The notes beneath the pieces are model-generated. The model was given only the letters and a program-made list of their open reading frames with translations, was not told the DNA's origin and did no database searches. From positions 768,001-832,000 of the forward strand of contig OZ242351.1 in the NCBI GenBank assembly GCA_965208675.1: DNA of 64,000 bases, in the 5' to 3' direction. The stretch is from Candidatus Poribacteria bacterium. GTDB taxonomy: Bacteria > Poribacteria > WGA-4E > PCPOR2b. Of the stretch, positions 18,930 to 64,000 are shown piece after piece. Made by a program: the position numbers and the translations under genes. Every line of letters starts with the position of its first letter. Within the stretch, counting starts at the first letter, position 1.

Positions 18930-18997
18930 CTTATGCTCAAACAGCACTCGTCCTTAACGAGTTTCTGTTTTGATGCGCTTGGTTGAGACGAAACCGC

Positions 18998-19768: not shown

Positions 19769-19861
19769 ATATTTTCCTCCAATTGTTTAGTTGCTCAATT
19801 TCAAATTGAATATCGGGTCAAGAAAATCAGCGCACCAGCGAATCTGTTCCCCTGCCCGTTT

Positions 19862-20656: not shown

Positions 20657-20696
20657 TGTATACGTCCCATTTTGAAATCTCGATTTGTGCAAATAT

Positions 20697-28912: not shown

Positions 28913-29941
28913 TTAATGTCTTCCGGCAAGTTTCATCTTCCCCCATATTGCGGTTAGCTTGGCAGCCGGTGAAACTGAAAACGCAATCCGCGGATCGAAC
29001 CATGCGGGATACAGGTCATTTGATTCATTATTCGTTAGGTTGGTTGGGTTACCGCCATCAGCGTCCATCACGTAAATTTCTACGTCTCCGTCACGCAGAG
29101 TGGAAAACGCTATCCGCCTACCATTTGGGGACCATGCAGGATAATCATCCCAACTAAAATCATTGGTCAGGTTCGTGGGATTCCCGCCGTCAGCGGCGTC
29201 GATAATGTATATTTCATTGTTAAAGTCCCGGGTCGCCGAAAAAGCAATCTTCTGGCCGGTTCGCGTCTGCCAGGCTGGATTCCTGTCATCATTGGGATCG
29301 TCCGTCAGACGTTTTTGATTTTCACCATTCGCATCCATCGAATAGATTTCAAAATTTCCATCCCGACTGCTAGCCCAAGCAATCTTTTTCCCGTCGGGCG
29401 ACCAAGTAGGTTCCATATCCTGATCTTTATGTTTTGTAACTCGAAAGGTGTTTTCCTGATCACCAAATTCAGCAATTTCCCAAGGAGCGAAATCACCGTC
29501 CAGCGCTCTGACAACCCAGAGGTCGAAATTCCAGCCTTCATTAACATTTGCGTGGACGAATGCTATCCACTCACCGTCAGGCGACCAAGACGGTGTCAGG
29601 TCTCGCACTCCAGCAGTCAGTTTGCGGCTCTCCTTGCCTCCGGAATCCATAATGTGAATATGCTCCCAGTGCCCTCCTCGATTTGAGGCGAACACGATTC
29701 GCGTTCCATCCGGCGACCACGAAGGCGATAGGTCCCGAGCGCTGTCCTTCGTTAATTTTTTCGGATTCTGCCCGTCGACGTCCATTATCCAAATCTCTTC
29801 GTTCTTGCTTCTGTCGGATTCGAAAACGATTACGGCTCTATCGGGCGCTTCTTGCGCAGCGCCGCGCATCGGCGAAAGAAACACCGCCATCGCGATTGTA
29901 ACATGTAGCGCGATGTACAGTAGCATGTTACGGTGGTGCAT
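28913..29941 (-). CDS. Secreted TolB-like beta-propeller (PD40 repeats) with conserved C-terminal tail
   Basis: Repeated P.WSPDG..I.F.S.R; tail FSVSPAAKLTAIWGKMK. Confidence 0.9.
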   Translation of the reverse strand: MHHRNMLLYIALHVTIAMAVFLSPMRGAAQEAPDRAVIVFESDRSKNEEIWIMDVDGQNPKKLTKDSARDLSPSWSPDGTRIVFASNRGGHWEHIHIMDSGGKESRKLTAGVRDLTPSWSPDGEWIAFVHANVNEGWNFDLWVVRALDGDFAPWEIAEFGDQENTFRVTKHKDQDMEPTWSPDGKKIAWASSRDGNFEIYSMDANGENQKRLTDDPNDDRNPAWQTRTGQKIAFSATRDFNNEIYIIDAADGGNPTNLTNDFSWDDYPAWSPNGRRIAFSTLRDGDVEIYVMDADGGNPTNLTNNESNDLYPAWFDPRIAFSVSPAAKLTAIWGKMKLAGRH

Positions 29942-30011
29942 ATGATCCCCCTGTTTATCTGCTCAATGTATTCGAAAGACCACTCCCGACACTACATGGG
30001 TACTTTACCGC

Positions 30012-31157
30012 CTATAGCTTGCTTGTTACCCACTTGACCTTGCCCCAAGTAGTTGTAGCTTTGTCGGCTGGAGACACCGAGAATGCAACAACTGGGTCAA
30101 ACCAAGCCGGGTTGGCGTTGAACGCCTCTTCAGTGTTAGTCAAGTTGGTCGGATTTCCGCCGTCCGCATCCATCACATAGATTTCGCCGTTGCCATCCCG
30201 CAGCGTTGCAAAGGCAATCTTACTGCCGTTCGGCGACCACTCTGGAAAATCGTCCCAATTGAAGTCATTCGTCAAATTTCTTTGGTTTCCCCCATCGACA
30301 TCCATTACGTAGATTTCATTGTTGAAGTCGCGCGTTGACGAAAAAGCAATTTTCCGACCGAATTTCGGCTGCCATGCCGGCGATTTATCGTCTCCAGGGT
30401 CGTTTGTAAGCCTTTTTCCATTCTCGCCGCTGGCGTCCATCACATAAATCTCAAAGTTGCCATTCCGATTTGTTGACCAAACAATCTTCTTGCCGTCTGG
30501 CGACCAATCAGGCTCAATGTCCGTGTCCCCGTGCTGTGTCAACTGCAATGGATCGACGCCTATATCTCCGTGCTCAACCTCCAGAAGGTAAATCTCGTAG
30601 TTCCATTCTGCTGCGCGGGGTGATCCAATTAGAATTGACGCACCATTTGGTGACCACCTCGGCCCCTTGTCCTGTGCACCATTTTCGGTCAACCTACGCA
30701 CGTCTTTACCTGCGTTGGACATTATAAACACATCTTCAAAGTGCGCCGCACGGTTGGACATGAATGCAATCCATTCTCCATCCGGAGACCACGCCGGTTC
30801 CGTGTCTTCCTTTTTGTCCTTTGTCAACCGAACAGGATTTCCTCCATCCGTATCCATAATGTAAATTTCGCTGTTGCCGTCTCGATTAGATTCAAACGCA
30901 ATTTTGGCAACATCGGGCGGCGCAGCGTAAACTTCGTCCGCAAGCACAATCATCGCAAACACTAGCACGCTGTACAAACCTAACCGCCCGACGATTTGAT
31001 GCGGTGAAATTCTTGGCGTACCATTTGTGATATGCACGCAGCGATTTTCGGCAATCATTTGGGCAATAGAATTACCGTTGCGTTCGTTAAGGAACAAAGT
31101 CACAGATTTTGGGCGGCAGCCAAAACCGTCAGAAGTCGGAGTATTGGCTAACTCCAT
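30012..31157 (-). CDS. TolB-like beta-propeller (PD40 repeats) with conserved C-terminal tail; paralog of the neighbouring gene (true start probably downstream of 31157)
   Basis: KIAFESNRDGNSEIY and WSPDG repeats; tail FSVSPADKATTTWGKVK. Confidence 0.88.
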   Translation of the reverse strand: MELANTPTSDGFGCRPKSVTLFLNERNGNSIAQMIAENRCVHITNGTPRISPHQIVGRLGLYSVLVFAMIVLADEVYAAPPDVAKIAFESNRDGNSEIYIMDTDGGNPVRLTKDKKEDTEPAWSPDGEWIAFMSNRAAHFEDVFIMSNAGKDVRRLTENGAQDKGPRWSPNGASILIGSPRAAEWNYEIYLLEVEHGDIGVDPLQLTQHGDTDIEPDWSPDGKKIVWSTNRNGNFEIYVMDASGENGKRLTNDPGDDKSPAWQPKFGRKIAFSSTRDFNNEIYVMDVDGGNQRNLTNDFNWDDFPEWSPNGSKIAFATLRDGNGEIYVMDADGGNPTNLTNTEEAFNANPAWFDPVVAFSVSPADKATTTWGKVKWVTSKL

Positions 31158-31278
31158 ATCCTGAAAATTCCGGCTCTTCCAAAAATTCTTGAGGTATATT
31201 CACTGTAGTCGATTGGAGTTCATAATCTACATTTCCAAATTGCCGCAAAACATGGATGCTGTCTCACACTCGTTTACT

Positions 31279-32082
31279 CTAATCTAGCCGCGACTTGACA
31301 TAGCCCCAACTCGTGGGCAACTTGCCACCGGGTTGAACACTCAATGGGATGCCGCTCATGAATTCATTGATGTCGTCCTCTGATAGTGCCGCCTTAAAAA
31401 GAGCAACTTCATCAATCAATCCGCCAAACGGCTCGCCGATAGCAATATGTGACCGTTCGCCAATCATAAAGAGCGGATCTCCAACGAACTGTATTTCTCC
31501 TTTGCGATCTTTGTGATTTGCAACTTCTTCACCGTTCACGTAGGAGATTGCCTCATCGCCGGTAAACACAAATGCGAGATGCGTCCATTCTTTCGATGCA
31601 ACCTGTCCGGAGTCGTACTCACGGTCCTTCGCCACACCGCCTTCCACCAAATTAAGCCACGTCGCCATAGCACCGCCTCGAACTCCGATTTGATGCCCGA
31701 CCCAAGGGTCGTCCCATTGTGCTTGATCGTCGTGCGGAACACCTGCGACATATTGAGTCGGTCCCGAGTCATCCGGATTTGCCCATGCCATCAGTGTCAA
31801 GTTCTGAGAAATGCGTAAATCGGCCGAGTTTGCAATCTGTACGGCATTCCCATCTTTTTTCAAAAACTTTACCGCGCCCTTGGGGCCTTCAATCGGCGCG
31901 CCGTCATTTTTTACTAGTGCGGCGACGCCTTTCATCTGGCCGTCATGCCCGTTTCCGGTTGCGTCTTTCGGATCGCCGTCAAACTTCCAGTACGCAACGA
32001 GATCATCAACCTGCGAATTCCCCGCGACAGGCATTGCCATCAATAGGCTCACGATGGCTAACGTAACTACAATAAGTTTCAT
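31279..32082 (-). CDS. Secreted LamG domain protein with conserved C-terminal tail
   Basis: LVAYWKFDG, WTHLAFVF, GLIDEVALF; tail SVQPGGKLPTSWGYVK. Confidence 0.9.
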   Translation of the reverse strand: MKLIVVTLAIVSLLMAMPVAGNSQVDDLVAYWKFDGDPKDATGNGHDGQMKGVAALVKNDGAPIEGPKGAVKFLKKDGNAVQIANSADLRISQNLTLMAWANPDDSGPTQYVAGVPHDDQAQWDDPWVGHQIGVRGGAMATWLNLVEGGVAKDREYDSGQVASKEWTHLAFVFTGDEAISYVNGEEVANHKDRKGEIQFVGDPLFMIGERSHIAIGEPFGGLIDEVALFKAALSEDDINEFMSGIPLSVQPGGKLPTSWGYVKSRLD

Positions 32083-32122
32083 TATTGCTGATTCCTCCTA
32101 TCCTAAGGTATGTGTGTTACGT

Positions 32123-32164
32123 ACTCAACCTTCGGTGGTTTTTGACCCGCGTCGAAGGTTGAGT
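32123..32164. terminator. Intergenic hairpin between tandem LamG genes
   Basis: ACTCAACCTTCG...CGAAGGTTGAGT, a 12-bp perfect inverted repeat. Confidence 0.55.
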
Positions 32165-32193
32165 TTATTTTACGAAATTGGAACACAATAGGG

Positions 32194-32976
32194 TTAACGG
32201 TCCCGCTTCAGATTTCCCCAGGTAGTGGCTAATTTACTTTCCGGTTCAACTGCGCCGCCAGGCTCGATTCCACCCATGTCTGCTTGGATTTGTTCTGGGC
32301 TTCTTACGCCGTTCCACAGTGCAACTTCGTCAATAGCGCCCTTGAAAAATTCGCCAATAGCTTCTTTCGATCGAACGCCGACCACGAAACTCGGTGAACC
32401 CTCGTATGTAGTTTCTCCATCACGGTCACCATTGTTGGCAACCTCCTCACCATTGACGTAAGAAATGGCTGTGTCCCCATCAAATGTAAAGGCTATGTGA
32501 GTCCACACACCCGACTCAATCGATCCCGAGTCGTATTCGCGATCAACACCAGCAATGCTCACCCATGTTGCCATTGCGCCGCCGCGAACACCGATCTGCT
32601 GACCGACCCAGGGATCGTCCCATTCAGCGCCATCATCAAAAGGCGTTCCACAAGCGAATTGCGTAGGACCCGCATCTTCGGAATTGACCCATGCTTCAAG
32701 TGTGACGTATTTTGCAATTTGGAACATATCGGAATTCCCGGCGTCAATGAAGTCGTCTGCGCCGTCAAACTGAACAGCGCCGCCCATCGGACCCGACGTC
32801 CTAGCAACACCGTTCATCAGAGTCCCATGATTCCCGTTGCCGCTGCCATCCATAGCCGTATCACCGGAACCCTCTTCGAAGTTGAAATACAGCACTAAAT
32901 CTTGTGCGACACCAATCGAGGTAAAACCCGCCGTCAACAACGCGACAAGCGCAATTGTTAAACTCAAATTTCTCAT
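32194..32976 (-). CDS. Secreted LamG domain protein with conserved C-terminal tail
   Basis: LVLYFNFEEGSG, WTHIAFTFDG, GAIDEVALWN; tail AVEPESKLATTWGNLK. Confidence 0.9.
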   Translation of the reverse strand: MRNLSLTIALVALLTAGFTSIGVAQDLVLYFNFEEGSGDTAMDGSGNGNHGTLMNGVARTSGPMGGAVQFDGADDFIDAGNSDMFQIAKYVTLEAWVNSEDAGPTQFACGTPFDDGAEWDDPWVGQQIGVRGGAMATWVSIAGVDREYDSGSIESGVWTHIAFTFDGDTAISYVNGEEVANNGDRDGETTYEGSPSFVVGVRSKEAIGEFFKGAIDEVALWNGVRSPEQIQADMGGIEPGGAVEPESKLATTWGNLKRDR

Positions 32977-37657: not shown

Positions 37658-38614
37658 TTACCCAATCCTATACTTTCCCAACCCGAACATTGCGTTATTG
37701 CCGACGTGCAGGAGTTCGCCTAGCACTACGAACGGCATAAACATCGCTAGTTCACCTTCATAAGTAACATTACCAACCAGTCCGTCGAACTGCGCCTTTT
37801 TATCCTGCCGCGACGCATGTTGTGTCACATCTTTCCACTCAAGTGAGGTTTCGGTCGTTTTAACAGTCTTCGCCTTTTCAATTAGTTCTTTAAAGTCGAT
37901 TTCTAGCGATTCACCGCAATGGAAATACGCCAGCGCCGAGATGCGTTCAATCAAATGCTTCCAGAAGACGTGGAACGGCAGCTTATCCATTAACTCTCCG
38001 TCATGCGCGATCCGTGTTGGTGCCAGTAGATGCAGCGTCAAGGTATTCAATGAGTCAAAACGCGCAGCGAGCAATGATAAGGCTTCCCTCTGAATCTCGG
38101 CAAATCTGAGAGCGTTATCAAAATTGTGCACCATCTGCGTGTCGCTATCATAGACCGACTCCCTGCTGTCGGTCAGGACTTGGGTCAACTGAAAGCGCCC
38201 ACGCTTCTTGCCAATGCCGCTCTCGCCCAAGTCGCGGAAACTGACTAAAAAATATGGCAGGTAATCAATAGCACGGCCGATGAGTGTAAGTTGAAATGCG
38301 AAGGATTCGCCGCGGCGGTATTCGCCTTGCGTACCTAACGGATCAATTACGAACGGTCTGGGCACATCGTCGTAGGATGGGAACTGATCCGCTCCTTCGA
38401 AGGGGGCGGTTTCAAAGTTGTAAGGGTAGGAACAGACTGTTTTGAGGGTGCAATCTCGGCAGTCAATGGATCCTTGCGTGCAGACCAACTTTCGGAATGC
38501 CGGTCCCAATCCCGCCCGGAGGGTAGAGCCGGTGTAAGGCGGCATCATAATTGTTGATCGCGCCGTTAGAATCACATGGTAACGCGCAAGCCGGAAGTTT
38601 TGCAGTAAGCTCAT
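37658..38614 (-). CDS. cas6: Cas6-family RAMP endoribonuclease (standalone, Zn-finger-containing type)
   Basis: GSTLR.G.G, C-x6-CxxC-x5-C, VPRPFVI, LTLIG, GIG..RG.F.L, SRQ, C-terminal G-rich loop LHVGNNAMFGLGKY. Confidence 0.88.
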   Translation of the reverse strand: MSLLQNFRLARYHVILTARSTIMMPPYTGSTLRAGLGPAFRKLVCTQGSIDCRDCTLKTVCSYPYNFETAPFEGADQFPSYDDVPRPFVIDPLGTQGEYRRGESFAFQLTLIGRAIDYLPYFLVSFRDLGESGIGKKRGRFQLTQVLTDSRESVYDSDTQMVHNFDNALRFAEIQREALSLLAARFDSLNTLTLHLLAPTRIAHDGELMDKLPFHVFWKHLIERISALAYFHCGESLEIDFKELIEKAKTVKTTETSLEWKDVTQHASRQDKKAQFDGLVGNVTYEGELAMFMPFVVLGELLHVGNNAMFGLGKYRIG

Positions 38615-41092: not shown

Positions 41093-42148
41093 ATGCCAGA
41101 TAACGAGAAGTCCGAAAGCCTGCTTCAACCTGAAGAACTGAGCCCCGCTGTCGATCTTGCGGCGAGAGCACTTGCGGAACTCGACCGCATCCTCCTCGGT
41201 CGTTCCGATTTGCATCGCATGGTGCTCATCGGAATTCTGAGTCATGGACACATTCTGCTTGAGGGAGTGCCCGGAGTCGGTAAAACTGCACTTGTGAAGG
41301 CGTTGGGTCAGCTACTTAACCTCGAATTCAACCGCGTCCAGTTCACGCCAGACTTGATGCCGGGCGACATTGTCGGTACACATATACTGCAGCAATCCTC
41401 GGAGGGGAACCGGGAAATGACGTTCCAAGCGGGACCAGTTTTCACGAACATCCTGCTCGCCGATGAGATTAACCGCGCTTCTCCGAAAACCCAATCCGCA
41501 TTGCTTGAAGCAATGCAGGAGCGGTGCGTCACGCTGCTTGGGAATACTCGCCAGTTGCCGAATCCTTTTTTCGTCCTAGCCTCTCAAAACCCTATCGAAT
41601 TGGAGGGAACGTATCCGCTCCCCGAAGCGCAGTTGGATCGATTCCTGTTCAAACTAATCGTCCCTAACGCCGATGTGGAGGTGCTCGACGACATTATCTC
41701 AACCCGCCGGCGCGGCGAACCGCCCGTACCCGCATGGTCAATGCACGCCGAGGAACTGCATCAGCTATTCGATGTGATGGATAAAATATTTTTGCCCAAG
41801 CCCGTTTCGCGATACATTTCACGTTTGACCGCATCTACCCATCCAAATTTTCCTGAGTCTACCGATGATGTTAGAAGATACGTTACCTACGCCGCATCGC
41901 CGCGAGCTGCCATAGCGATGGCGGAGGCGGCGCGAGCCTCTGCTTTGATTTCGGGCCGCCCAACGGTTGGATTTGAAGATGTAAAATTAGTCGCTCCGTC
42001 CGTGCTGAATCACCGCGTAATTTTGAATTATCAGGCCCGCTTCGATAGTGTGGATACCTTCGCAGTAGTGAGTAGTCTTCTTGACTCCCTTGACGAAACT
42101 AACTTGAATCTGCCCGATGACGTTGAGATCCGATTCGAGTCAGAGTGA
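41093..42148 (+). CDS. moxR: MoxR-family AAA+ ATPase
   Basis: HILLEGVPGVGKT, RVQFTPDLMP.D, LADEINRASPKTQSALLEAMQE, QNPIELEGTYPLPEAQLDRF. Confidence 0.96.
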   Translation: MPDNEKSESLLQPEELSPAVDLAARALAELDRILLGRSDLHRMVLIGILSHGHILLEGVPGVGKTALVKALGQLLNLEFNRVQFTPDLMPGDIVGTHILQQSSEGNREMTFQAGPVFTNILLADEINRASPKTQSALLEAMQERCVTLLGNTRQLPNPFFVLASQNPIELEGTYPLPEAQLDRFLFKLIVPNADVEVLDDIISTRRRGEPPVPAWSMHAEELHQLFDVMDKIFLPKPVSRYISRLTASTHPNFPESTDDVRRYVTYAASPRAAIAMAEAARASALISGRPTVGFEDVKLVAPSVLNHRVILNYQARFDSVDTFAVVSSLLDSLDETNLNLPDDVEIRFESE

Positions 42149-48834: not shown

Positions 48835-50877
48835 ATGAAAGCCAATGAAGAGAATTTACTGAAATTCTTGGATGGAACAAAACAGTTTATACTGCCAATT
48901 TATCAGCGTCGGTACAGTTGGACGAAAGAACAATGCAAACAGTTACTAGAAGACGTGTGTCGTATTGGGAAAAATGAGAATATCACGTCTCATTTCCTGG
49001 GATCAGTTGTTTCACGGGAAGAGGTTAGTACAAGGGTTCAACAGTTATGCGTCATTGACGGTCAACAGCGATTAACATCGGTTTCGCTATTGCTATCTGC
49101 GCTTGGCAGAGCCATTCAAGCAACGGGGGCGGATATTGGCATCGATCAAAACCGGATAAAAGGGTACTATCTATTCAATGAAAAAGAGGATGGAGATCTC
49201 CGTTACAAACAGATACTCACAACGCACGACAAGGAGACGCTGATTCAATTGTTGGAGGAGGGAGAATCTCCCGATAACTCTTCCCTGTTGACGAACAACT
49301 ACCAATTTTTTGAAGATAAGCTCAAGTCCGTCGATCTTAATGTGGTGTATAAAGGAATTGACAAGCTAATGATTGTCAGTATCGCCCTGGAATCTGCCTC
49401 TGACAATCCTCAGCTAATATACGAGAGTCTCAATTCCACTGGACTTAAACTTTCGCAAGCCGATTTAATTCGTAACTATGTGCTTATGGGACAGAAGTTC
49501 GATTTTCAAAAGAGCCTATATGAAATTTATTGGTATCCGATGGAGCAGCGTTTTGGAGAGGAGTACGCCAAACGATTTGACCTTTTTATAAGGGATTATC
49601 TGACTCTGAAGACTCGACAAATTCCGAATAAGGGTCAAGTTTACGAAAGTTTTAAACGGTATGTGGACGACAAGAGGAAGCCAGAAGACTTAAAGGCAGT
49701 CATCAAGGAAATCGTCGACTTCTCCGAACTCTATGTGCGCATAGTTTTACTCGAAGAACCTGACCGAGAACTTCATTCTTGCTTTGAGGACATTCATGCC
49801 CTTGGTGTAGAGGTCGTCATTCCGTATTTGCTTGGTATCTACGAGGATTATACTCTAGGAAAAATCGAGAAGGCGGAGGTTATCAGGATTCTCCAGCTTA
49901 TTGAGAGCTATGTCTTTCGTCGTGCGATATGTGACATTCCCACGAATATCTTGAATAAAACCTTCGCGGGACTTATTGGCCAAATCGACGGGGGAGAACA
50001 CTTGCAAAGCCTGAAAATTAGTTTCTCGAAAATGAGTGGGAGGAGCCTTTTCCCAAAAGATGATGATTTTCGGCAGGAATTCCAGACTAAAGACGTTTAT
50101 AACCTCCGAACTCGCAATTATTTACTACGCAAGCTAGAGAACTATGAACGCAAAGAACCGATTCGTGTTAAAGACTACACAATTGAGCATGTGATGCCGC
50201 AAAGTCTGTCTGAAGAATGGCAGGCGGAGTTGGGCGAAAACTGGAGAAACACTCATGAAAAATATCTTCACACGATTGGAAATCTCACTCTTACGGGATA
50301 CAATCCGGAGCTAAGTAACAGTACATTCCTAGAAAAACAGAACATGAATGGCGGTTTTCTCGACAGCCCGTTGCGCTTAAATGAAAGCCTTCGCGAGGTA
50401 GAGCGGTGGAATGAGTATGTTATTGTTAAACGAGCGGAGATTTTATCGGAAAAAGCACTTAACATCTGGCGTTACCACGGGATAACAAGAGTAATCGAAC
50501 CGTCTGGAAAAGAAAAATGGACAATAAATGACTTTTCTTATCTCACAGGTGACATGCTGGACCTTTTTGAACAGTTAAGGCACAGTATTGTGTGCTTGGC
50601 TGCTTCTATTGAAGAACAGATTAACAAACATTACATTGTTTTCAAGTCAAATAAGATCTTTGTAAGTATTACACCGCAAGCAAAACGCCTCCTATTGATC
50701 TTAAACTTGCCCTTCGCCGAAATCAGTGACCCGAAAAGACAGTGCAGAGACGTTGCACATATCGGAAAATTAGGCCATGGAGATGTTCAGGTCGGCATCG
50801 CTTCAAAAGACGAAATTGACTACATCATGTTCCTGATTCGCCAAGCGTACGAAAAACGAAAATCAGACAGGATGTGA
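48835..50877 (+). CDS. gmrSD: GmrSD-family type IV restriction endonuclease (DUF262 + DUF1524/HNH + DUF5655-like)
   Basis: PIYQRRYSW, IDGQQRLT, ESLNSTG..LS..DLIRN, IEHVMPQ...IGNLTL..YNPELSN; more AT-rich than neighbouring genes. Confidence 0.9.
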   Translation: MKANEENLLKFLDGTKQFILPIYQRRYSWTKEQCKQLLEDVCRIGKNENITSHFLGSVVSREEVSTRVQQLCVIDGQQRLTSVSLLLSALGRAIQATGADIGIDQNRIKGYYLFNEKEDGDLRYKQILTTHDKETLIQLLEEGESPDNSSLLTNNYQFFEDKLKSVDLNVVYKGIDKLMIVSIALESASDNPQLIYESLNSTGLKLSQADLIRNYVLMGQKFDFQKSLYEIYWYPMEQRFGEEYAKRFDLFIRDYLTLKTRQIPNKGQVYESFKRYVDDKRKPEDLKAVIKEIVDFSELYVRIVLLEEPDRELHSCFEDIHALGVEVVIPYLLGIYEDYTLGKIEKAEVIRILQLIESYVFRRAICDIPTNILNKTFAGLIGQIDGGEHLQSLKISFSKMSGRSLFPKDDDFRQEFQTKDVYNLRTRNYLLRKLENYERKEPIRVKDYTIEHVMPQSLSEEWQAELGENWRNTHEKYLHTIGNLTLTGYNPELSNSTFLEKQNMNGGFLDSPLRLNESLREVERWNEYVIVKRAEILSEKALNIWRYHGITRVIEPSGKEKWTINDFSYLTGDMLDLFEQLRHSIVCLAASIEEQINKHYIVFKSNKIFVSITPQAKRLLLILNLPFAEISDPKRQCRDVAHIGKLGHGDVQVGIASKDEIDYIMFLIRQAYEKRKSDRM

Positions 50878-51092: not shown

Positions 51093-53846
51093 ATGACACT
51101 CCTCCAACCAATCTGGCTATTACTATGTATACCGCTTGGCGTATCGCTGTGGGTCTGGAAACCGAGTTCGCGGTTACTCTGGATATTGCGGTTCGTAATA
51201 TTATCTCTAGTCCTGTTAGCGATGTGCGGGCTTGCCGTGGAATTGCCGAGACGGGCCGGCACCATTGTCGTCATCGCGGACCGTAGCTTGTCGATGCCGC
51301 ACGGCAGCGAAGCTAGGCAGAAAGAAGCTATTGATTTAATACAGAGCGAGATGCCGAGCGATTCCCGCCTTGGCGTCGTCTCCTTTGGACGTGTGTCCGC
51401 GGTCGAACAGTCACCGCAAAGTGGAAAGTTCGCGGGTTTTGTCAACGAGGTGAACGGCGATGCGTCGGATCTAAACGCCGCAGTTGCGCAAGCCATTGCA
51501 CTCATACCGCGAGATTCGCCCGGCAGAGTGATTCTTCTGTCGGACGGCAGATGGACTAGTAACGACCCGATGGACACAGCAGCCCAAGCCGCAGCGCGAG
51601 GTATCCCCATTGATTACCGCGCCATGCGCCGGAACTCCGTAAACGATGTTGCCATCTCCCATGTAGATGCCCCCGATGTTGCAACACCCGGTGAATCGTT
51701 TATGATTGCCGCATGGATACACGCGCCGATTTCAGGAGAAATTTCATACGAGTTGTTGCGTAATAATCAACGCCTAACGGCTGGCAAGCGGAGCGTTCCA
51801 TCCGGGTTGAGCCGGCTGATTTACCGGGACAAAGCCGCGCAACCGGGTACTCATCAATACGCTGTGCGAATTGCGGGAAGCGAATCCGACCCGGTGCCAG
51901 AGAACAATACGGCAAAGGTCTTGATCGGTATTCAAGGGGCTCGCCCCATTCTTCATATCACAACCACTTCCAATACTGGGTTGGCGAATCTGCTGAAAGC
52001 GGGCGGTTTGGATGTAAAATCCGCACCGCCGTCGGCATACATCTGGTCGCTTGATGGACTTTCCGGATTTTCGGCAGTGCTGGTAGAGAATGTGTTCGCG
52101 GGTGAGATTGGCCTCCACGGCATGGAAAATCTTGCCGCTTGGGTCAGAGAGACTGGGTCGGGGTTCATGATGACCGGCGGCAAACACGCCTATGGACCGG
52201 GCGGCTATTTCAAATCTCCGCTCGAGCCAATCATGCCGCTCTCCATGGAGTTGAGACGCGAACATCGGAAGCTGTCGCTCGCGATAGTGGTGGCGATGGA
52301 CCGGTCCGGCAGTATGTCAATGCCGGTAGGCGGCGGCAGGACGAAAATAGATCTCGCAAATCTCGCGACAGCGGAAGTTTTTGACATGTTGTCACCGACG
52401 GATGAGTTTGGCGTAATTGCGGTCGACAGCGCCCCGCACATTATTGCCAACCTCGCGCCTGTTGACAAACTAGGAGGCACCCGGAGCAGAATCCTTCGAA
52501 TTGCTTCACAGGGCGGCGGTATCTTCGTCTACGAAGCACTTAGCGCCGCATCTTCAATGTTACTCCGCGCTCAAGCCGGTACGCGGCACATCATTCTGTT
52601 TGCGGATGCCGCCGATTCCGAGCAACCCGGACGCTATATAGAGTTGTTGGAGGAATGTCGAAAAGCTAACATTACTGTCAGCGTCGTAGGACTCGGAACA
52701 CCGTCCGATGTCGACGCTGGACTGCTGCGTGACATCGCCCGGCGCGGCGAGGGGCGTTGCTTTTTTACCGAAGATGCCGAAGAGTTGCCGCGTCTGTTCG
52801 CTCAGGACACGTTTGTGGTGGCGCGCAGCACGTTTGTTGACGAACCCACGCCGATTAAAACCACAGGCGGGATGGCTGCGTTGACCGGCGCTCAATATCA
52901 GATTCCGTCCTCTATCGGCGGGTACAACTTATGTTACATTCGTCCCGACGCAAACCTCGCTGCCGTGACCTTGGACGAATACAAGGCGCCTGTGGTAGCG
53001 GCGTGGCAGGCGGGTACTGGACGGGTGCTCTGCTATACAGGAGAAGCGGACGGGGCGCACACCGGCGCAATTGCCAATTGGAATGGTATTGGAAACCTGT
53101 TCACGAGCTTAGCACGCTGGACTGCTGGAGATTCTGGCAACCTCCCCGATGGGATGTTGCTCACACAAAAGGTCAGAAACGGCGTCGGCAAAATACAACT
53201 TCATCTCGACCCGGAACGAGAGGGTGAAATGTTCAGGGATCTACCTAGCGTGACTGTTCTACGCGGCGTAGTTGGAGAAAAGCCGACCGTGAGTAAAACA
53301 AAGTTGTCATGGACATCCGCCGACTCGCTCACTGCGGATGTTCCCATACACGGCGGTGAAACAGCGCTAGCGACCGTGGAGGTACCGGGGGCTGGAACTG
53401 TATCGCTGCCGCCGATTTGCCTGCCTTATTCACCGGAGTTTAAGCCCGCGCCGGACGAATCCGGTCTAGCGACATTGGAAAGGCTTGCCAAAACGTCCGA
53501 GGGAAAATCGAGAGTCAGCCTCGGTAGTATTTGGGACGATTTGCCGCGCAATCCCCGTCTAATAGGTCTCGCACCGTGGTTACTGATCGCGGCGCTTCTC
53601 CTTCTGCTGCTCGAAACACTCGAACGCCGTACAGGGTTGTTTTCCATGAAACGGACGTACAGAGTGGTAGAAGCAGTTTCGCAACGAATACCCCGAAAGG
53701 CGCGCCGCACATCGAGGACGATTTCATCGCCCGTAAAAACATCGCCGCACACTTCTCCAGAACCGGAGGGTAGCGTGGAGCGGGATGGAATGCTAGACGC
53801 CTTAACCCAAGCGCGAAGGCGTGCCAGCGGACGGACAGGGCAGTGA
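51093..53846 (+). CDS. Membrane-anchored double-vWA / GATase-like domain protein
   Basis: MIDAS motifs DRSLSM and DRSGSM, LLSDG, MTGG..AYGPGGY, LE...P, C-terminal TM with ERR. Confidence 0.9.
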   Translation: MTLLQPIWLLLCIPLGVSLWVWKPSSRLLWILRFVILSLVLLAMCGLAVELPRRAGTIVVIADRSLSMPHGSEARQKEAIDLIQSEMPSDSRLGVVSFGRVSAVEQSPQSGKFAGFVNEVNGDASDLNAAVAQAIALIPRDSPGRVILLSDGRWTSNDPMDTAAQAAARGIPIDYRAMRRNSVNDVAISHVDAPDVATPGESFMIAAWIHAPISGEISYELLRNNQRLTAGKRSVPSGLSRLIYRDKAAQPGTHQYAVRIAGSESDPVPENNTAKVLIGIQGARPILHITTTSNTGLANLLKAGGLDVKSAPPSAYIWSLDGLSGFSAVLVENVFAGEIGLHGMENLAAWVRETGSGFMMTGGKHAYGPGGYFKSPLEPIMPLSMELRREHRKLSLAIVVAMDRSGSMSMPVGGGRTKIDLANLATAEVFDMLSPTDEFGVIAVDSAPHIIANLAPVDKLGGTRSRILRIASQGGGIFVYEALSAASSMLLRAQAGTRHIILFADAADSEQPGRYIELLEECRKANITVSVVGLGTPSDVDAGLLRDIARRGEGRCFFTEDAEELPRLFAQDTFVVARSTFVDEPTPIKTTGGMAALTGAQYQIPSSIGGYNLCYIRPDANLAAVTLDEYKAPVVAAWQAGTGRVLCYTGEADGAHTGAIANWNGIGNLFTSLARWTAGDSGNLPDGMLLTQKVRNGVGKIQLHLDPEREGEMFRDLPSVTVLRGVVGEKPTVSKTKLSWTSADSLTADVPIHGGETALATVEVPGAGTVSLPPICLPYSPEFKPAPDESGLATLERLAKTSEGKSRVSLGSIWDDLPRNPRLIGLAPWLLIAALLLLLLETLERRTGLFSMKRTYRVVEAVSQRIPRKARRTSRTISSPVKTSPHTSPEPEGSVERDGMLDALTQARRRASGRTGQ

Positions 53847-53923
53847 ACGTAAAATTATTCAAATATCTTGAATTTTTCGATGCAGATGCGCTAGAATTAA
53901 CACCGACAACGGAGAGGTGTTTT

Positions 53924-54601
53924 ATGTTCATTCGATATCTAATTCTCTTCCTGCTATCGGTGGTAACTATGTACGGATGGGCGGATGTGGATGAATCATT
54001 ATCCACACAGCAGCAAGCCAACCGACCGACCTCCGTAACGCCTGCCTGAAGTGCCTGACCGGGCGAAGGCGCGCCGCTTCGGGGAAGCGGAATTCAGAAA
54101 AATTGGGCAATTTCATGGCGTTATATCCGCACCGAGTTGGACCGGCCTCGCTGGCGGACAACACTGAACTACGCGGTGGCAAATAGACTTCAACTCGGCG
54201 TCGAATTCAATCCCGCTGCTCGAGAGTTCGCACCGCTCGCCAACTTTTTTCTTTTCACTGAAACGAACGTCCGACCCGCGGCGGTTATAGGAACAAGTTC
54301 AGACCGTGTCGGGTCGCCGCCGAAGGAACAAGCATACTTTTTGACAATCGCCAAGCGTCTGCCGAGCGTGCCGATTTCGGCCTATGCAACCATCAACTAC
54401 TCTGAATGGGACGACGGGTTCAATTTCCCTTTCGGTGCTAGCATTGCCTTCGGTAAAGGCTTCACTTTACGCGGCATGTACGACGGAGATCTCCCCCACG
54501 TGATGTTGAACTACTACTATAAAGAGCTCAGCTTAAGTCTAATGTACATAAGTATCGATCAATCGCAAAGGCCGGGCATCGCGCTGTCCTCATCATTCTA
54601 A
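53924..54601 (+). CDS. Putative selenoprotein (UxxU motif), secreted, with C-terminal outer-membrane beta-barrel-like domain
   Basis: GGAGAGG RBS before ATG 53924; signal peptide; in-frame TGA at 54047-54049 and 54056-54058 (TPA-U-SA-U-PGEG). The frame then stays open to 54601 and ends ...GIALSSSF. Confidence 0.75.
54059..54090 (+). other. Putative bacterial SECIS element
   Basis: CCGCTTC-GGG-GAAGCGG hairpin (54074-54090) with a G-rich loop 22 nt after the second UGA and 31 nt after the first. Confidence 0.6.
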
Positions 54602-54632: not shown

Positions 54633-55505
54633 ATGGACGAGACTTTCCGCCAATATCTCATAGACGGCGAACGCGCAGGGACGCAGTACACACTCACTGC
54701 ACCGCGCAATGTGCCCTTTGGGTTAGCCGGAAATCTAACAGGGAAGCGTCCGGGGAGTTCACTGGAGTTTATCGACCACCGGGAATACCAACCGGGCGAC
54801 GACCTGCGAAGAATTGACTGGGGCGGCTTCGCCCGAAGCGATAAATTGACCGTAAAGTTGTACCGGGACGAAGTCAACCCGCATCTAGACCTTGTCATTG
54901 ATGGATCGCGCTCGATGTCTCTCGAAAATTGCCCCAAAGCGCAAGCTACGCTTGGGTTAGCAGCAGTTTTTGCAACGGCGGCTGAGAATGTCGGTTATTC
55001 CCATTCCGCCTGGATCGCCGGGGATGGATATCGCAGGGTGGGAAACGGCGCAGACCGACCCTCAATTTGGCAGGGAATAGACTTTGAATATCGGGGCGAC
55101 CCTTCCACGTCTTTCGCCAAGCTCCCTCCGTCGTGGCGTCCCTATGGGATGCGCGTGTTACTTAGCGACCTGCTCTGGCCGAGCGACCCGACCGCGGCGC
55201 TGTCTCGATTCGGTGAACGCGCCGCCGCCGTCATTCTGGTCCAAATCTTATCGGAGGTAGACGTCAATCCCATCGAACGCGGCAACATTCGACTTGTCGA
55301 TTCAGAAACCGATGATGTGCAAGAAATATTCTTGGACGCGGTTGCTGAAAAGCGGTACCGCGCCGCATTCGCACACCATCAGGAGAACTGGAATCTCGCC
55401 GCGAAACGCGCTGGAATTGTGATGACAACAGTTATGGCTGAGCACATCCTGAGCGATTGGAGATTAGAAACGCTGGTTGGCGCTGAAGTGCTAAACATGG
55501 CATAG
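54633..55505 (+). CDS. DUF58 domain protein (MoxR partner)
   Basis: GSSLEFIDHREYQPGDDLRRIDW..FARSDKL.VK, IDGSRSM, LLSDLL. Confidence 0.93.
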   Translation: MDETFRQYLIDGERAGTQYTLTAPRNVPFGLAGNLTGKRPGSSLEFIDHREYQPGDDLRRIDWGGFARSDKLTVKLYRDEVNPHLDLVIDGSRSMSLENCPKAQATLGLAAVFATAAENVGYSHSAWIAGDGYRRVGNGADRPSIWQGIDFEYRGDPSTSFAKLPPSWRPYGMRVLLSDLLWPSDPTAALSRFGERAAAVILVQILSEVDVNPIERGNIRLVDSETDDVQEIFLDAVAEKRYRAAFAHHQENWNLAAKRAGIVMTTVMAEHILSDWRLETLVGAEVLNMA

Positions 55506-59112: not shown

Positions 59113-62100
59113 TTGAAAAAGTTTGTCCTGATTGTACTCGCCGCCCTAGCCTTTCCACAAGTCAACTCTACGCAAAGCACCACTGACCACTCCGCGCTCG
59201 AACCCATACAATCTGCACTACAGTCAAAGCGTTTCAAGGATGCAGTACACCTCATTGATACTGCATTGACGACGGCAGAGAATCAACGAGACTATCTGCT
59301 TTATCTCAAGGGTCTCGCGCTGTTCTATAACGGTGATTACAGGGGCGCAATTGAGACGTGCGTCCAATTCATTCAGGATCACCCTGATTCCACGTGGTTG
59401 AGGAAAGCAACGTTCCTTCAAGCCCAGTGTCATCTCAAACTGAAGGAATTTAAACAGGCTGAAGCAATCTACAGTAAAGAGGTTAGTCGGCTTCTCTCAT
59501 CAAGACGCAAATCGGAAATTGCCCAAATTTACATTCAGCTTGCCGAAACCTTCGCGCACAAACCCGATGACGCAGACCTCGACGCCCGCCAGCCGAACTA
59601 TCAGAAAGCGTATGAACTGTATCAAAAAGTTTTGGCGTTAGAGGTTGACCGTAACCTTCGCAAAACGGCTACCTTCCAACTCGGACGCATGATGCAGCTG
59701 CAGGAGAAATACGCACAAGCCGTTGTTGACTACGAAGCCTACCTTACACAGTTTGATCCCAATTTTCAGCGCCCGGCCGCTTTGCCAATGCCTTCAAAGA
59801 AGAGCAAAACGCCCGATGGCCGCCGCTATCAGGCTCATTACCATCTAGCGGAATGCCAGATAGCCTTGAATCAGCACCTACAGGCGCGATTGACGCTTGA
59901 GAACATATTAAAACCGGCCGAATTTGAAACGAAAGAACTACAGCCTCTCATTAAAAACGCTCGCTTCCTGTTGACCCGGACCTACCACTTCCCTAACCCC
60001 AAGTCAAACAAAGAGTTGGAGCTAGGCGTACAATCTGCCCGAAGGTTTCAGGAGCAGTTTCCGCGTGACCCGCGCTCAATGACACTAGCGCACGAAATCG
60101 GTGAGGCATATCGGATGCGGCATCGAAGCGAGGAAGCGCTCGCTGCGTACCAAGACGTTATCGACGGAAAGGGCTTCAAAGTAACCCAAAAGAAGCGGCA
60201 ATTTTCAAATCCCAACAATCAAGATTACCATCACCTCCGTATGTCCTCCGCATTTCAAATCGGGAGTATTCTGTTCAAACAGCGAAAGTATAACAATGCA
60301 ATTGAAGCGTGGAATAGATACATTCGAGAGTTTCCCAATGGACCTGAATGGACCGACGCTCAACAGGGGATTGTAAAAGCCGAATTTCAAATTGCTGTAT
60401 CGCTCCTTGCCGGCGAAAAATACGAAGAAGCTGTGCGTGCGTTCGATACCTTCCAAGCAAAACACCCGCTGGATGAACGCGTGCGGCAGATAATGTTTAT
60501 TTATGGCCAAATTCACGCTCACAAATCCGAACATCAGCTCGCAATTACCGAGTGGGAAAAGCTCGTGAGCAAATTCCCGAACACGGAAGAATCGTCACTC
60601 GCGCTCTTTCGCATAGGGCAGACGTACGAACTACCATTGGGCGATCTTGAAAACGCGCTAGAATCTTACCGAAGGCTAACCTGGGGAAGCTGGCACGCTC
60701 GTGCGCAAGAGGTCATACGCCAGATGACAGAGAAGCACCTCCAACTTGTCACACCGCGCACGTTCCGTACGAATGAACCGACACACGTGCAAGTGTCTCT
60801 TCGCAATATCGAATCCCTCACGGTGAATCTCTACAAACTCAATCTTGAAGCCTACTGGCGCAAGATGTACGATGTGAACGGCGTGGAAGATCTCGATCTC
60901 GACTTGATCGAGCCGAACAAGACTTGGCAATACAGCGTTCCAAACTACGAGAAGTACAAGAGCTTGGAGTGCAATATCAACATTCCGTTTGCCGGTCCCG
61001 GCGTTTACGCGGTGCAACTCGGCGATGAGTCGCTGGAATCCACGACACTTCTTATCCGCAGCGATATCGAGACTATCACCAAGACATCCCGCCGCGAGGT
61101 ACTTGTATTCGTGCAAAATATGCTGAATGGCGAAGTGGTCGCCGATGCTAAGGTGCTTGTAAGCGACGGCTCAAGCGTAATCTTCGAAGGACGCACCGGA
61201 GCGGACGGTGTACTCCATGCAACTGAACCTGACATTTCGGATTTCGCATTGGTAGAGAACCAACTTAAGGATGCGAGTCAGGTGGCGGTATTCGTCGTCA
61301 AGGGTGGACACGTGGCCGCAGACGGGTTAGATATTTCAGGGCTTGGCTTCAGTAAAGGCTTGACGCCGCGCGGCTATATCTACACCGACCGCCCCGCATA
61401 CCGACCGGGAGAACGCGTTTCAATGCGCGGCATTATCCGTGATGTCAGCAATGGCGCGTACGTGGTACCGGACGGTGCACCATGTAACGTCTCAGTGATC
61501 GATGCACGCGGACGCCAAATCCATAAAGAGGAGGTCAAACTCTCTCAGTTTGGCGGGTTCGTCACGCAGTTGCAGCTTGACAATGCCGCCGCTGTCGGCG
61601 AATACCGCATCCGTGTGGCAGAATTCGACCCAGATGCAAAGCTAGAAATCTCAAGCCACACATTCACAGGTAACTTTCAAGTTCAGCGATTTCAACTCGA
61701 AAAGGTACAGTTGCTGCTCGATTTTCCACGCAGTGTCTACTTCCGCGGTGAACAGGTGAATGCTACCTTTACGGCACGATACTATTACGGCCAGCCGGTG
61801 AAGCACGCAAAAATTCAATACAAACTTCCAGATGGCCGGAGCTATACGGAAACCGCTGATAATCAGGGAAAACTGCAGGTCAATTTCGATACGACATCTA
61901 TGCAACCCGGCAAACCGCTTCATTTCAGCGGGACAGTTCCGGGTGAGAATGCCAGCGTTAAAACCTCCGTGACGCTTGCACATCTCGGATATTCAATTTC
62001 TGTGCAACCTGACGCTAAACTTGTTCTCTCCGGTGAACCGTTCGACGTAACATTACATACAAAAGGCGCTGATGGTCATCCGGTTGGCGAAAAATTAACC

Positions 62101-64000
62101 GTCAAAGTAGTACAAAAGCAGAGCAGCGGTCCCATTTCGCCGGTACTGTCGCAGATTCCTTGGATAAAAAAGGAAGGTGTGTCCGGTTCTGCCGAGATAA
62201 TCATCCAAGAACACAACCTGCAGACAGATTCCCAGACGGGCGCCGGTACAATTCAGTTGACGCTAAACACTGGAGGTGTTTTTACAGTCCGTGCCCATGG
62301 AGTAGATCGGTTCGGACAACCCGTCGTCGGCTCAAGCCGTGTCACCATATCCGATGAGGATGATGACACCAAACTCCGCATTTTCGCCGATCGTTCGAAA
62401 ACACAGGTCGGCGCTTCCGAAAGGCTTCGCATTCACTCGCGATTGAAACCCGTTCACACACTAATCACGTATGAAGGTGAAATTGTTATTGGATATGAAG
62501 TACGCTTGCTGAAAACGGGAAAAAATCGGCTTCAGTTCACAATCGGGCACCAACACTTCCCGGATTTTTACATTGGTGTGGCGGCAATTGACGATCGAAT
62601 CCTACACACCGCAAGGAAACGCTTCACCGTCGAAAGGCAACTAAATTTATCCGTGACTTGGATGGATAGCAATCCGATTCACGGCTCCAATCAGACTCTT
62701 CCCGGCTATCTGCCCGGTGACGATGCGAAAATCCAAGTCCGCGCTACCGATCAACTTGGTCAGCCGGTCAAGGCTGAATTTTCTCTCGCGCTCGTGGACG
62801 AAGCCCTGTTCGCCGTCTACAAAGATGGCGTCATGAACATTAACGATTTCTTCCAGAAAGGACTCCGACGCCATGCATCCATGCGCACTGCTTCAAGCTG
62901 CGCCTTTCTTTACGCTCCCGACACACGTCACGTCATTAAGGAAATACTTGCAGAGGAACAACGGCTTGAAAAAACCTTCGTCAGTGCTGCGAAGATGAGC
63001 GGCGCGGTTATTGTCGAGGATGACGATGACAATGTACGGAAGCGCATGCGCATGCGCAGACGCGTTCGCAAGCCAGTAATTAAAGATCTTCGCCCAGCAC
63101 TTGCTGAACCGAAAGTGCGGGAAGAATCCACCTACGCCGGTTTTTGGATTGGAACCTTCATCACGGACGATGCGGGTTTGGCAACGTTAACCGTCCCGAT
63201 GCCAGAAAAGACGACGAAATGGCGGCTGACTGCGCGTGGATCCACCGTTGATACACTCGTTGGACAAGTCAGTGTGAACGCCATTACGCGGAAAGATTTC
63301 TTCCTCGACGTTCGCACCCCGGCATTTGTTACCGAAGGTGATGAGATTCGATTAGGTATCCGACTCCATAATATCACCGACTATAGTGGAGAAGCCGACG
63401 TTCAACTCAAGCTGTCAATTGGCGAATCGCAGCCGGTGTACCGAGACCACAAAAGAACTACGATTACTGCCAAAGACACGGCAGAGCTAATCTTCGACAG
63501 GTTCACCATTCCCGCTGGAAACCTGCACGCTGACCCACATCCAAGCCAACTCACCATTGAAGCGACGGCAACTGCGGGTTCATTGAGTGATGGAGTTCGG
63601 CGCACAATTCCGATTCGTCCGTGGGGGCTGGAATACACCGATACCCAGAGCGGAACGGCGGCTAGCAACAGAACCGTTTACGTCCAACTCTCGTCTGATT
63701 TACACTACACGCAGAAGGGACTCACTATCAATATTGGTCCGAGTGTCTCGCGGCTAATCTATGATCTCGCTCTCAACCACTATCCCCGACCATACCAGAG
63801 TGGGTCTATCAGACGTCCCGTCATCATACCCAGTGATTCTGGCAGCGACCTACTTGCTGTGGCGTCCGCTCTCGACTATCAAAAAAAGGTGGGCGACAAT
63901 CCAACCGATAATCGCAGCTTGCTCGCGCGCGCACGGACGCTCGTCAGCCGACTCGTAACAACACAAAATGACGACGGCGGGTGGAGTCTGGTTCGAGGCA
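59113..64000 (+). CDS. Large TPR-containing bacterial alpha-2-macroglobulin family protein (truncated by window edge)
   Basis: AGGAGG RBS before TTG 59113; frame appears open to the edge (absent from the ORF track because no stop). Signal peptide, many TPRs, YTDRPAYRPGE, SLALVDEALF, MPEKTTKWRLTARG, QNDDGGWS. Confidence 0.9.
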   Translation, partial: MKKFVLIVLAALAFPQVNSTQSTTDHSALEPIQSALQSKRFKDAVHLIDTALTTAENQRDYLLYLKGLALFYNGDYRGAIETCVQFIQDHPDSTWLRKATFLQAQCHLKLKEFKQAEAIYSKEVSRLLSSRRKSEIAQIYIQLAETFAHKPDDADLDARQPNYQKAYELYQKVLALEVDRNLRKTATFQLGRMMQLQEKYAQAVVDYEAYLTQFDPNFQRPAALPMPSKKSKTPDGRRYQAHYHLAECQIALNQHLQARLTLENILKPAEFETKELQPLIKNARFLLTRTYHFPNPKSNKELELGVQSARRFQEQFPRDPRSMTLAHEIGEAYRMRHRSEEALAAYQDVIDGKGFKVTQKKRQFSNPNNQDYHHLRMSSAFQIGSILFKQRKYNNAIEAWNRYIREFPNGPEWTDAQQGIVKAEFQIAVSLLAGEKYEEAVRAFDTFQAKHPLDERVRQIMFIYGQIHAHKSEHQLAITEWEKLVSKFPNTEESSLALFRIGQTYELPLGDLENALESYRRLTWGSWHARAQEVIRQMTEKHLQLVTPRTFRTNEPTHVQVSLRNIESLTVNLYKLNLEAYWRKMYDVNGVEDLDLDLIEPNKTWQYSVPNYEKYKSLECNINIPFAGPGVYAVQLGDESLESTTLLIRSDIETITKTSRREVLVFVQNMLNGEVVADAKVLVSDGSSVIFEGRTGADGVLHATEPDISDFALVENQLKDASQVAVFVVKGGHVAADGLDISGLGFSKGLTPRGYIYTDRPAYRPGERVSMRGIIRDVSNGAYVVPDGAPCNVSVIDARGRQIHKEEVKLSQFGGFVTQLQLDNAAAVGEYRIRVAEFDPDAKLEISSHTFTGNFQVQRFQLEKVQLLLDFPRSVYFRGEQVNATFTARYYYGQPVKHAKIQYKLPDGRSYTETADNQGKLQVNFDTTSMQPGKPLHFSGTVPGENASVKTSVTLAHLGYSISVQPDAKLVLSGEPFDVTLHTKGADGHPVGEKLTVKVVQKQSSGPISPVLSQIPWIKKEGVSGSAEIIIQEHNLQTDSQTGAGTIQLTLNTGGVFTVRAHGVDRFGQPVVGSSRVTISDEDDDTKLRIFADRSKTQVGASERLRIHSRLKPVHTLITYEGEIVIGYEVRLLKTGKNRLQFTIGHQHFPDFYIGVAAIDDRILHTARKRFTVERQLNLSVTWMDSNPIHGSNQTLPGYLPGDDAKIQVRATDQLGQPVKAEFSLALVDEALFAVYKDGVMNINDFFQKGLRRHASMRTASSCAFLYAPDTRHVIKEILAEEQRLEKTFVSAAKMSGAVIVEDDDDNVRKRMRMRRRVRKPVIKDLRPALAEPKVREESTYAGFWIGTFITDDAGLATLTVPMPEKTTKWRLTARGSTVDTLVGQVSVNAITRKDFFLDVRTPAFVTEGDEIRLGIRLHNITDYSGEADVQLKLSIGESQPVYRDHKRTTITAKDTAELIFDRFTIPAGNLHADPHPSQLTIEATATAGSLSDGVRRTIPIRPWGLEYTDTQSGTAASNRTVYVQLSSDLHYTQKGLTINIGPSVSRLIYDLALNHYPRPYQSGSIRRPVIIPSDSGSDLLAVASALDYQKKVGDNPTDNRSLLARARTLVSRLVTTQNDDGGWSLVRG

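Follow-up and report, generated by a model that had tools for sequence, protein, structure and literature searches.

In the 119-family prokaryotic selenoprotein table of a May 2026 review (PMC13188914), the UxxU arrangement of two selenocysteine (Sec, U) residues occurs in the Prx-like, metal-binding 'mercuric reductase' and FmdB families alone, and outer-membrane selenoproteins are represented by the GSU2204 / MtrB-PioB type and the TonB-dependent receptor. The gene studied here lies on the plus strand of a 64,000-nt stretch of contig OZ242351.1 (positions 768,001 to 832,000) from a Candidatus Poribacteria bacterium; this whole stretch is hereafter called the window. Judged from sequence comparison, the gene very probably encodes a genuine, translated UxxU selenoprotein with an outer-membrane barrel, a grading that applies to the identity of the product and not to its function. 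On this reading, the family is a new and widespread selenoprotein family of a known general kind, in which a UGA codon for Sec is combined with a bacterial Sec insertion sequence (SECIS) element.

As in this protein, the two Sec residues of the Prx-like (SelL type), NF041115 'putative mercuric reductase' and TIGR02605 FmdB families are spaced like CxxC, Cys forms exist, and each UGA pair is presumably served by one downstream bacterial SECIS. However, these families are soluble thioredoxin-fold or small metal-binding proteins, whereas the protein described here is a predicted outer-membrane barrel. The GSU2204/MtrB-PioB barrel (NF041027) and the TonB-dependent receptors NF049944-NF049947 share with it the presence of Sec in a secreted outer-membrane barrel; the motif types of the receptors are FCYXU, CU, PUIUD and PCPU, of which PUIUD contains two Sec judging by its name alone. 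Those proteins are large barrels that come with a plug or cytochrome partner, in contrast to the small 12-stranded barrel predicted here, in which the putative Sec pair lies on an N-terminal linker.

The models NF041027 and NF049944-NF049947 did not match the protein. Membership of the catalogued UxxU families (Prx-like/SelL, NF041115, TIGR02605) was rejected, as the full-length reading gave 0 Pfam and 0 NCBIfam matches to them. More generally, no family for the protein or its relatives was found in Pfam (E up to 0.1) or in the June 2026 release of NCBIfam, in keeping with the first-pass annotation, made from the letters of the window, which had not recognised the family. The family is also missing from the 119-family table cited above, and literature searches, whose coverage did not extend to most subscription journals or to any supplements, found no description of it.

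Conservation of the two in-frame UGA codons

The first-pass annotation had described a single frame from the ATG at 53924, interrupted by two UGA codons only. On direct translation the same frame was obtained: it has 225 codons (53924-54601), and its sole interruptions are TGA at codons 42 and 45. The two open reading frames (ORFs) called under translation table 11, at 53843-54049 (68 aa) and 54137-54601 (154 aa), share this frame.

Relatives were collected by scanning species-representative genomes with peptide patterns taken from the C-terminal domain and not from the motif. In total, 184 genomic relatives were confirmed by tblastn, and the locus counts given below rest on the best 80 of these 184 together with the window (81 sequences). 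TGA was present at both positions, with identical spacing, in 81 of 81 sequences, and both triplets formed invariant columns in an ungapped 84-column DNA alignment. UxxU followed by P-G-E-G was read in all 81 frames; in the linker of the protein the motif stands in the context P-T-U-x-x-U-P-G-E-G. Neither Cys nor Trp codons were found at either UGA position in the 81 sequences, and there were no UxxC, CxxU or CxxC forms among these close members. Alleles with TAA or TAG, which according to the first-pass annotation would speak against Sec, were likewise not seen, both positions being TGA throughout.

The depositor labels of the loci span at least eight phyla. By depositor titles, 26 loci belong to Poribacteria, 19 to Latescibacterota/-bacteria, 7 to Acidobacteriota (Thermoanaerobaculia included), 6 to Eisenbacteria/Eiseniibacteriota, 4 to Gemmatimonadota and 3 to 'Cytophagia'; Planctomycetota, Calditrichia, 'Deferribacteres' and Multivoradales are represented by 1 locus each, and 11 loci are unclassified. 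TGA serves as an ordinary stop in these genomes: it ends the VWA gene upstream in the window and 36 of the 81 homologous genes. Other TGA-interrupted frames were listed at 33 places in the window, a listing that gives no evidence on Sec use in this genome.

A word-indexed protein search returned 26 relatives, the best of which was a 141-aa 'hypothetical protein' labelled Candidatus Poribacteria. The expectation that standard annotation would split or miss the gene was borne out, since 24 of the 26 begin downstream of the UGA codons. The other two, P0013 and P0021, are full length and have Trp at both positions. The DNA behind P0013 comes from locus L071, where both positions are TGA; therefore, the Trp residues of P0013 are a gene-calling artefact and do not reflect TGG. 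This result also answers the concern, raised in the first reading, that homologues might carry Trp at these sites. Both UGA codons appear as Trp in the database entries P0013, P0021 and P0125. Evidently, some pipelines called these contigs under a code in which TGA means Trp, which hides the Sec sites.

The region before the UGA codons was found to be coding. At every locus with upstream sequence, an in-frame start was present and no other stop preceded the first UGA; L064 is cut off by a contig end. A hydrophobic stretch of 10 residues preceded the first Sec in 78 of the 80 homologues with a called start, and in the two others the rule for start codons probably picked one too far downstream. 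The ratio of non-synonymous to synonymous differences (pN/pS) was calculated for 13 closely related Poribacteria genes (78 pairs). From the start to the first UGA it was 0.24 in frame, compared with 1.09 and 1.61 in the shifted frames, and after the hairpin described below it was 0.12 in frame, compared with 1.8 and 2.8. The segment before the UGA codons is under purifying selection only in the frame of the barrel. In addition, residues P46, G47, E48, G49, R66, W77 and R78 were invariant in 36 of 36 aligned sequences, and all of them fall in the stretch left untranslated by current annotation.

Distant relatives were obtained in an exhaustive profile search of 1.84 billion representatives, which gave 238 proteins at E up to 0.001. 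Most of these start after the UGA codons. Among the 27 that were fetched, 11 carry (P/A)TCAGCAG with both Cys on the Sec columns, as known from protein sequence alone (P0048, P0053, P0055, P0056, P0059, P0060, P0064, P0068, P0070, P0078 and P0121). Homologues with CxxC at these positions, which had been suggested as a check, thus align exactly with both UGA codons. Sec in some homologues and Cys in others at one position is what usually marks a genuine selenoprotein family. P0108 carries another CxxC, and P0052, P0072, P0157 and others are relatives without the motif. In the representative library, P0035 has the motif C-x-x-W-P-G-E-G; its W may possibly stand for TGA, in which case P0035 would have C-x-x-U and stand between the Cys and Sec clades.

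The SECIS-like hairpin and the identity of the gene

A hairpin of 7 bp with a GGG loop begins 15 nt downstream of the second UGA, and the bare 17 nt folds at -9.1 kcal/mol. The distance to the start of the loop is 31 nt from the first UGA and 22 nt from the second, the same values as in the first reading, and there were zero indels in this interval in the 81 sequences. In the published bacterial SECIS (bSECIS) model, the loop has 3-9 nt with G at its first two positions, the stem has 4-16 bp, the distance from the UGA to the loop is 16-37 nt and the minimum free energy (MFE) is at most -7.5 kcal/mol (PMC13188914). All 81 sequences had G[G/U]G as the loop, the closing pair was C-G in 80 of 81, and the MFE was at or below -7.5 kcal/mol in 76 of 81 bare hairpins. 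The spacing of the hairpin from either UGA codon agrees with the published model, as do the size and sequence of its loop and the length of its stem.

The covariation that had been proposed as a check of the hairpin was present. In the 81-sequence alignment, the seven pairs were formed in 99.3% of 553 cells, both sides changed in three of the seven pairs, and the covariation score observed was reached by none of 500 shuffles. When the partner was slid by 1-3 columns, pairing fell to 30-69%, and RNAalifold independently gave the same helix. Pair 45-51 (Leu3:Gly3) was CG in 46 rows, UA in 29 and UG in 2, and pair 42-54 (Pro3:Ser3) was GC in 56 rows, GU in 13 and AU in 7. In L072 the encoded residues are altered and 6 of the 7 pairs are retained through G-C for C-G swaps. 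Codon choice within the hairpin also differed from that elsewhere in the gene: CTT/CTC for Leu in 80 of 81 sequences (35% elsewhere), GGA/GGG for Gly in 80 of 81 (42%), CGG/CGT for the Arg of the loop in 80 of 81 (44%) and AGC/AGT for Ser in 77 of 81 (29%). Synonymous divergence was 0.13 in the 11 hairpin codons compared with 0.40 in the flanks.

Several observations weigh against the assignment of the gene as a selenoprotein gene. The MFE of 5 of the 81 bare hairpins was weaker than -7.5 kcal/mol. The 71-nt segment 54040-54110 folded with z = -0.46, and 60 of 200 shuffles were at least as stable; because this thermodynamic test was not significant, the comparative evidence was relied upon. 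No SECIS family was found with Rfam in 53800-54700 at E up to 10, where the three matches obtained were unrelated, on the minus strand and with E above 2. Furthermore, the covariation is partly confounded with lineage or GC content. Since T to C and A to G changes at the stem wobble positions also raise the GC content, codon bias was tested as a confounder. The GC state of the Leu wobble correlated with that of its pairing partner at phi 0.92 and with the other wobbles at -0.32 to 0.72, the value of 0.72 being that for one unpaired position. Codon bias was rejected as the whole cause of the covariation, as the hairpin codons depart strongly from the usage of the gene and each paired position correlates most strongly with its partner. 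There is a lineage effect, which does not account for the pattern.

It should also be counted against Sec insertion that no selA, selB, selD or tRNA-Sec was detected within the 64-kb window by Pfam on its 37 ORFs and a tRNA scan, and that no tRNA-Sec was detected in loci L001-L060, these 60 loci holding no tRNA of any kind. Indirect support for Sec use in these lineages comes from the literature: Sec-containing hydrogenase variants are reported from Poribacteria and Acidobacteriota metagenome-assembled genomes (PMC13582414), and SelA and SelB COGs are found together in most bins of sponge symbionts (PMC5649159).

Conservation of the TGA codons and of the hairpin shows that the codons are recoded, not which amino acid they specify. 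In some bacteria, Sec-like tRNAs insert Cys at UGA, and no Sec machinery was found in the sequence scanned. The UGA codons might accordingly be recoded without Sec, with the hairpin stimulating either read-through by a near-cognate tRNA (giving Trp) or insertion of Cys via a SelB-type pathway. This was considered improbable: the hairpin matches the SelB-type bSECIS model in loop sequence and spacing, the homologues carry Cys and not Trp at both positions, and TGC/TGT or TGG would be simpler for Cys or Trp yet occurred in none of the 81 sequences. Two successive low-efficiency read-throughs would, moreover, yield very little protein. The reading in which translation ends at the first UGA, the upstream part is a short leader peptide or regulatory element and the barrel is translated on its own, beginning with the TTG at 54137, is exactly what table-11 ORF calling gives and how 24 of the 26 database relatives are annotated. 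Its probability is nevertheless very small. A barrel begun at 54137 would be without a signal peptide, which in 80 loci always lies in the frame of the barrel with no other stop between; the protein is conserved across the supposed gap (P-G-E-G, R66, W77 and R78 in 36 of 36 sequences); the annotated starts fall at differing, non-homologous places; and the Cys-form relatives are continuous proteins through the motif. As for a pseudogene, or TGA codons created by assembly error in this genome, errors or decay do occur nearby, the neighbouring TonB-dependent receptor being frameshifted in the window and intact in L001. The presence of the same two TGA codons in 80 independent assemblies and purifying selection on both sides of them leave this explanation with next to no probability.

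Predicted barrel, its proposed YHS-TlpA partner and a possible function

An AlphaFold2 (AF2) model based on a 36-sequence alignment had a predicted local distance difference test score (pLDDT) of 74.2 and a predicted template-modelling (TM) score of 0.72. It contained a helix spanning residues 2-19, then a low-confidence linker (residues 20-60) in which the motif lies, and 12 main strands at residues 61-224. In a Foldseek search of the PDB, the model matched FapF at E = 1.7e-5 and KdgM with TM scores of 0.51/0.66 and a root-mean-square deviation of 4.2 Å, at identities of 9-15%; NanC, OMPLA and porins were also matched. There were 48 PDB matches at E <= 0.001, and every match listed was a transmembrane barrel. 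The C-terminal residue was Phe in 78 of the 81 sequences. The suggestion of a barrel with a terminal Phe, made from the letters alone, is therefore supported by AF2, Foldseek and conservation. The mature protein is predicted to be a 12-stranded outer-membrane barrel of KdgM/NanC size; on prediction, it shows the N-terminal helix, even strand number and C-terminal aromatic residue that characterise outer-membrane barrels.

The predicted 12-stranded fold is shared with the small porins KdgM and NanC and with the FapF secretion channel (PDB 4fqe, 2wjq and 5o68), and at 9-15% identity this is a likeness of fold class and not family membership. No sequence relation to PDB chains was found by profile search at E up to 1. 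Membership of the KdgM/NanC porin family was accordingly rejected, there being no profile match in Pfam or the PDB and a likeness at the level of fold alone.

In the window, the gene is flanked by one for a 917-aa VWA protein and one for a DUF58 protein; a TonB-dependent receptor gene follows further downstream. The VWA-barrel-DUF58 order is kept in L001-L003. Outside Poribacteria a different neighbour was found. In 48 of the 53 non-Poribacteria loci, the barrel gene is directly followed on its strand by one for a secreted protein of ~227 aa with a YHS domain and a TlpA/ResA-like thioredoxin domain (AhpC/TSA/Redoxin), the active site of which is WCNPC. The partner gene was within 2 kb in 2 more of the 53 loci, and 3 showed none, including L031, which ends 119 nt after the barrel gene. 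YHS domains, one to three in number, are also fused N-terminally to Cys-form barrels: Pfam confirms P0048, the domain of P0053 scores 29.7 bits compared with a Pfam cut-off of 30.3, and the fusions of P0059, P0064 and P0070 were judged by eye. The YHS stretches gave matches below the Pfam cut-off to TRASH and to 'putative metal-binding domain of cation transport ATPase', and YHS is grouped by Pfam with metal-binding modules.

The partner resembles TlpA-type thiol reductases in that a secreted TlpA/ResA-like WCxxC domain stands beside a protein with C/U-x-x-C/U. It differs from them in scoring under the curated ResA and TlpA cut-offs, in its extra YHS domain and in its proposed client, a selenol-bearing outer-membrane barrel. 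TlpA-type periplasmic thiol reductases keep the cysteines of copper-handling proteins reduced. In three Latescibacteria-labelled loci (L055, L067 and L076), the gene order is TonB-dependent receptor, UxxU barrel, YHS-TlpA protein and S-adenosylmethionine-dependent methyltransferase, the last with a weak, sub-threshold likeness to UbiE/ArsM-type enzymes. This arrangement may represent a larger uptake or modification operon.

The following mechanism may be proposed. The ribosome would start at 53924 and insert Sec at codons 42 and 45, the single SECIS hairpin past the second UGA recruiting SelB with Sec-tRNA for both codons. The product would consist of a signal peptide, a flexible linker of ~40 residues with UxxU and a 12-stranded outer-membrane barrel. 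Judging from the usual topology of even-stranded barrels, UxxU would face the periplasm or plug the barrel from the periplasmic side. There, the two selenols could form a soft-metal site (e.g. for copper) or a redox site together with the periplasmic YHS-domain TlpA-like thiol reductase; the partner would keep the selenols reduced or pass metal to them, and the barrel would move cargo across the outer membrane. The soft-metal or redox site is proposed because the YHS domain is linked to the barrel in two independent ways and because a dedicated periplasmic thiol reductase is present. A selenol pair on the periplasmic side that forms such a site and is serviced by the YHS-TlpA partner can be put forward only tentatively. 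Two results tell against this functional part: no YHS-TlpA gene was found within 6 kb in 28 of 28 Poribacteria-type sequences (the window and 27 loci), and the linker with UxxU had a pLDDT of 40-55, so that its placement relative to the barrel is unsupported by the model.

The main alternative keeps the identity of the protein and takes the motif as a pure redox switch, in which a diselenide/diselenol couple gates or plugs the channel or passes electrons and is reset by the TlpA-like partner. It would fit the TlpA/ResA-type WCxxC thioredoxin domain of the partner, and UxxU of SelL appears as a diselenide in a title in the reference list of PMC2398784. The best Foldseek match, moreover, was FapF. 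In FapF, an N-terminal plug closes a 12-stranded barrel. The two ties of YHS to the barrel (a shared operon for the Sec forms, a fusion for the Cys forms) point instead to metal, as do the sub-cut-off matches to TRASH and to the metal-binding domain of ATPases on the same stretches, and the pure redox switch is a rather doubtful possibility. A more elaborate form, in which an obligate diselenol/diselenide pair carried by an N-terminal plug or arm opens, closes or loads the channel through metal binding or redox switching, the YHS-TlpA protein resets the pair and one SECIS serves two UGA codons 9 nt apart in every member, is unlikely.

If the proposed identity is true, a widespread selenoprotein family is added in largely uncultured lineages, including sponge-associated Poribacteria. 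The family would be unusual in that none of the 81 close members lacks either Sec residue, in that Sec is carried on an outer-membrane barrel and in having a YHS/TlpA-type periplasmic partner. The tie to this partner would connect selenium use with metal or redox traffic across the outer membrane in a way that can be tested, and the hairpin would be a clean natural case of one SECIS serving two close UGA codons. Should the gated channel exist, it would be a gate or metal relay that depends on selenium, at the surface of bacteria from many uncultured phyla. In public annotation, the gene is at present cut short or mistranslated with Trp.

Feature coordinates and neighbouring genes

Table. Positions, in window numbering, of the features of the UxxU barrel gene and of other genes in the window.
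Feature	Position	Strand	Basis
Possible sigma-70-like promoter, TTGAAT-18-TAGAAT	53868..53897	+	Consensus match alone, 9/12 positions; no evidence of function
Shine-Dalgarno-like GGAGAGG, 6 nt 5' of ATG	53911..53917	+	Read from sequence
Complete coding sequence, 225 codons + TAA stop (54599-54601), both UGAs read as Sec (putative)	53924..54601	+	Translation; full-length homologous frames in 80 loci
Signal-peptide-like N-terminus, residues 1-20, GWA then D	53924..53983	+	AF2 helix 2-19; hydrophobic stretch in homologues
First in-frame UGA, codon 42, read as Sec (putative)	54047..54049	+	TGA in 81/81; Cys aligned in distant homologues
Second in-frame UGA, codon 45, read as Sec (putative)	54056..54058	+	TGA in 81/81; Cys aligned in distant homologues
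SECIS-like hairpin, stem 54074-54080 with 54084-54090, GGG loop 54081-54083	54074..54090	+	Pairing, covariation, RNAalifold, MFE, codon choice
Predicted 12-stranded beta-barrel domain, residues 61-225, ends in Phe	54104..54598	+	AF2 model, Foldseek, terminal Phe conservation
IS4/IS5-family DDE transposase gene	16392..17183	+	
Laminin_G_3 run	17828..20797, 27691..32976	-	
Cas6 endoribonuclease gene	37658..38614	-	Pfam 2.4e-15
MoxR-type AAA ATPase gene	41093..42148	+	
GmrSD-type restriction endonuclease gene	48835..50877	+	
VWA protein gene	51093..53846	+	
DUF58 protein gene	54633..55505	+	
TonB-dependent receptor, first ORF, 814 aa	55806..58250	+	Matches TonB barrel domain
TonB-dependent receptor, second ORF, 160 aa	58214..58696	+	Matches TonB barrel domain
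ORF of >1629 aa, runs off the window end	59113..63999	+	TPR, MG2, bait-region and A2M domains

The candidate promoter sits in the 77-nt gap 3' of the upstream VWA gene, and the hairpin overlaps the codons for P-L-R-G-S-G. A MoxR-type AAA ATPase, a large VWA protein and a DUF58 protein are usually found together; in the window, their genes are spread over 14 kb. The TonB-dependent receptor downstream of the barrel gene is split into two overlapping ORFs in different frames, and its counterpart in L001 is a single 963-aa ORF; the split is a frameshift or an assembly error.

Elsewhere in the window, no tandem repeats indicative of a CRISPR array were found near the Cas6 gene (36500-41200). GmrSD-type restriction endonuclease and transposase genes are also present. 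On the minus strand, six paralogous secreted Laminin_G_3 (concanavalin-like) proteins are interleaved with two PD40 beta-propeller proteins and a GH116 glycosidase. The long ORF at the end of the window combines TPR repeats with the MG2, bait-region and A2M domains of alpha-2-macroglobulin.

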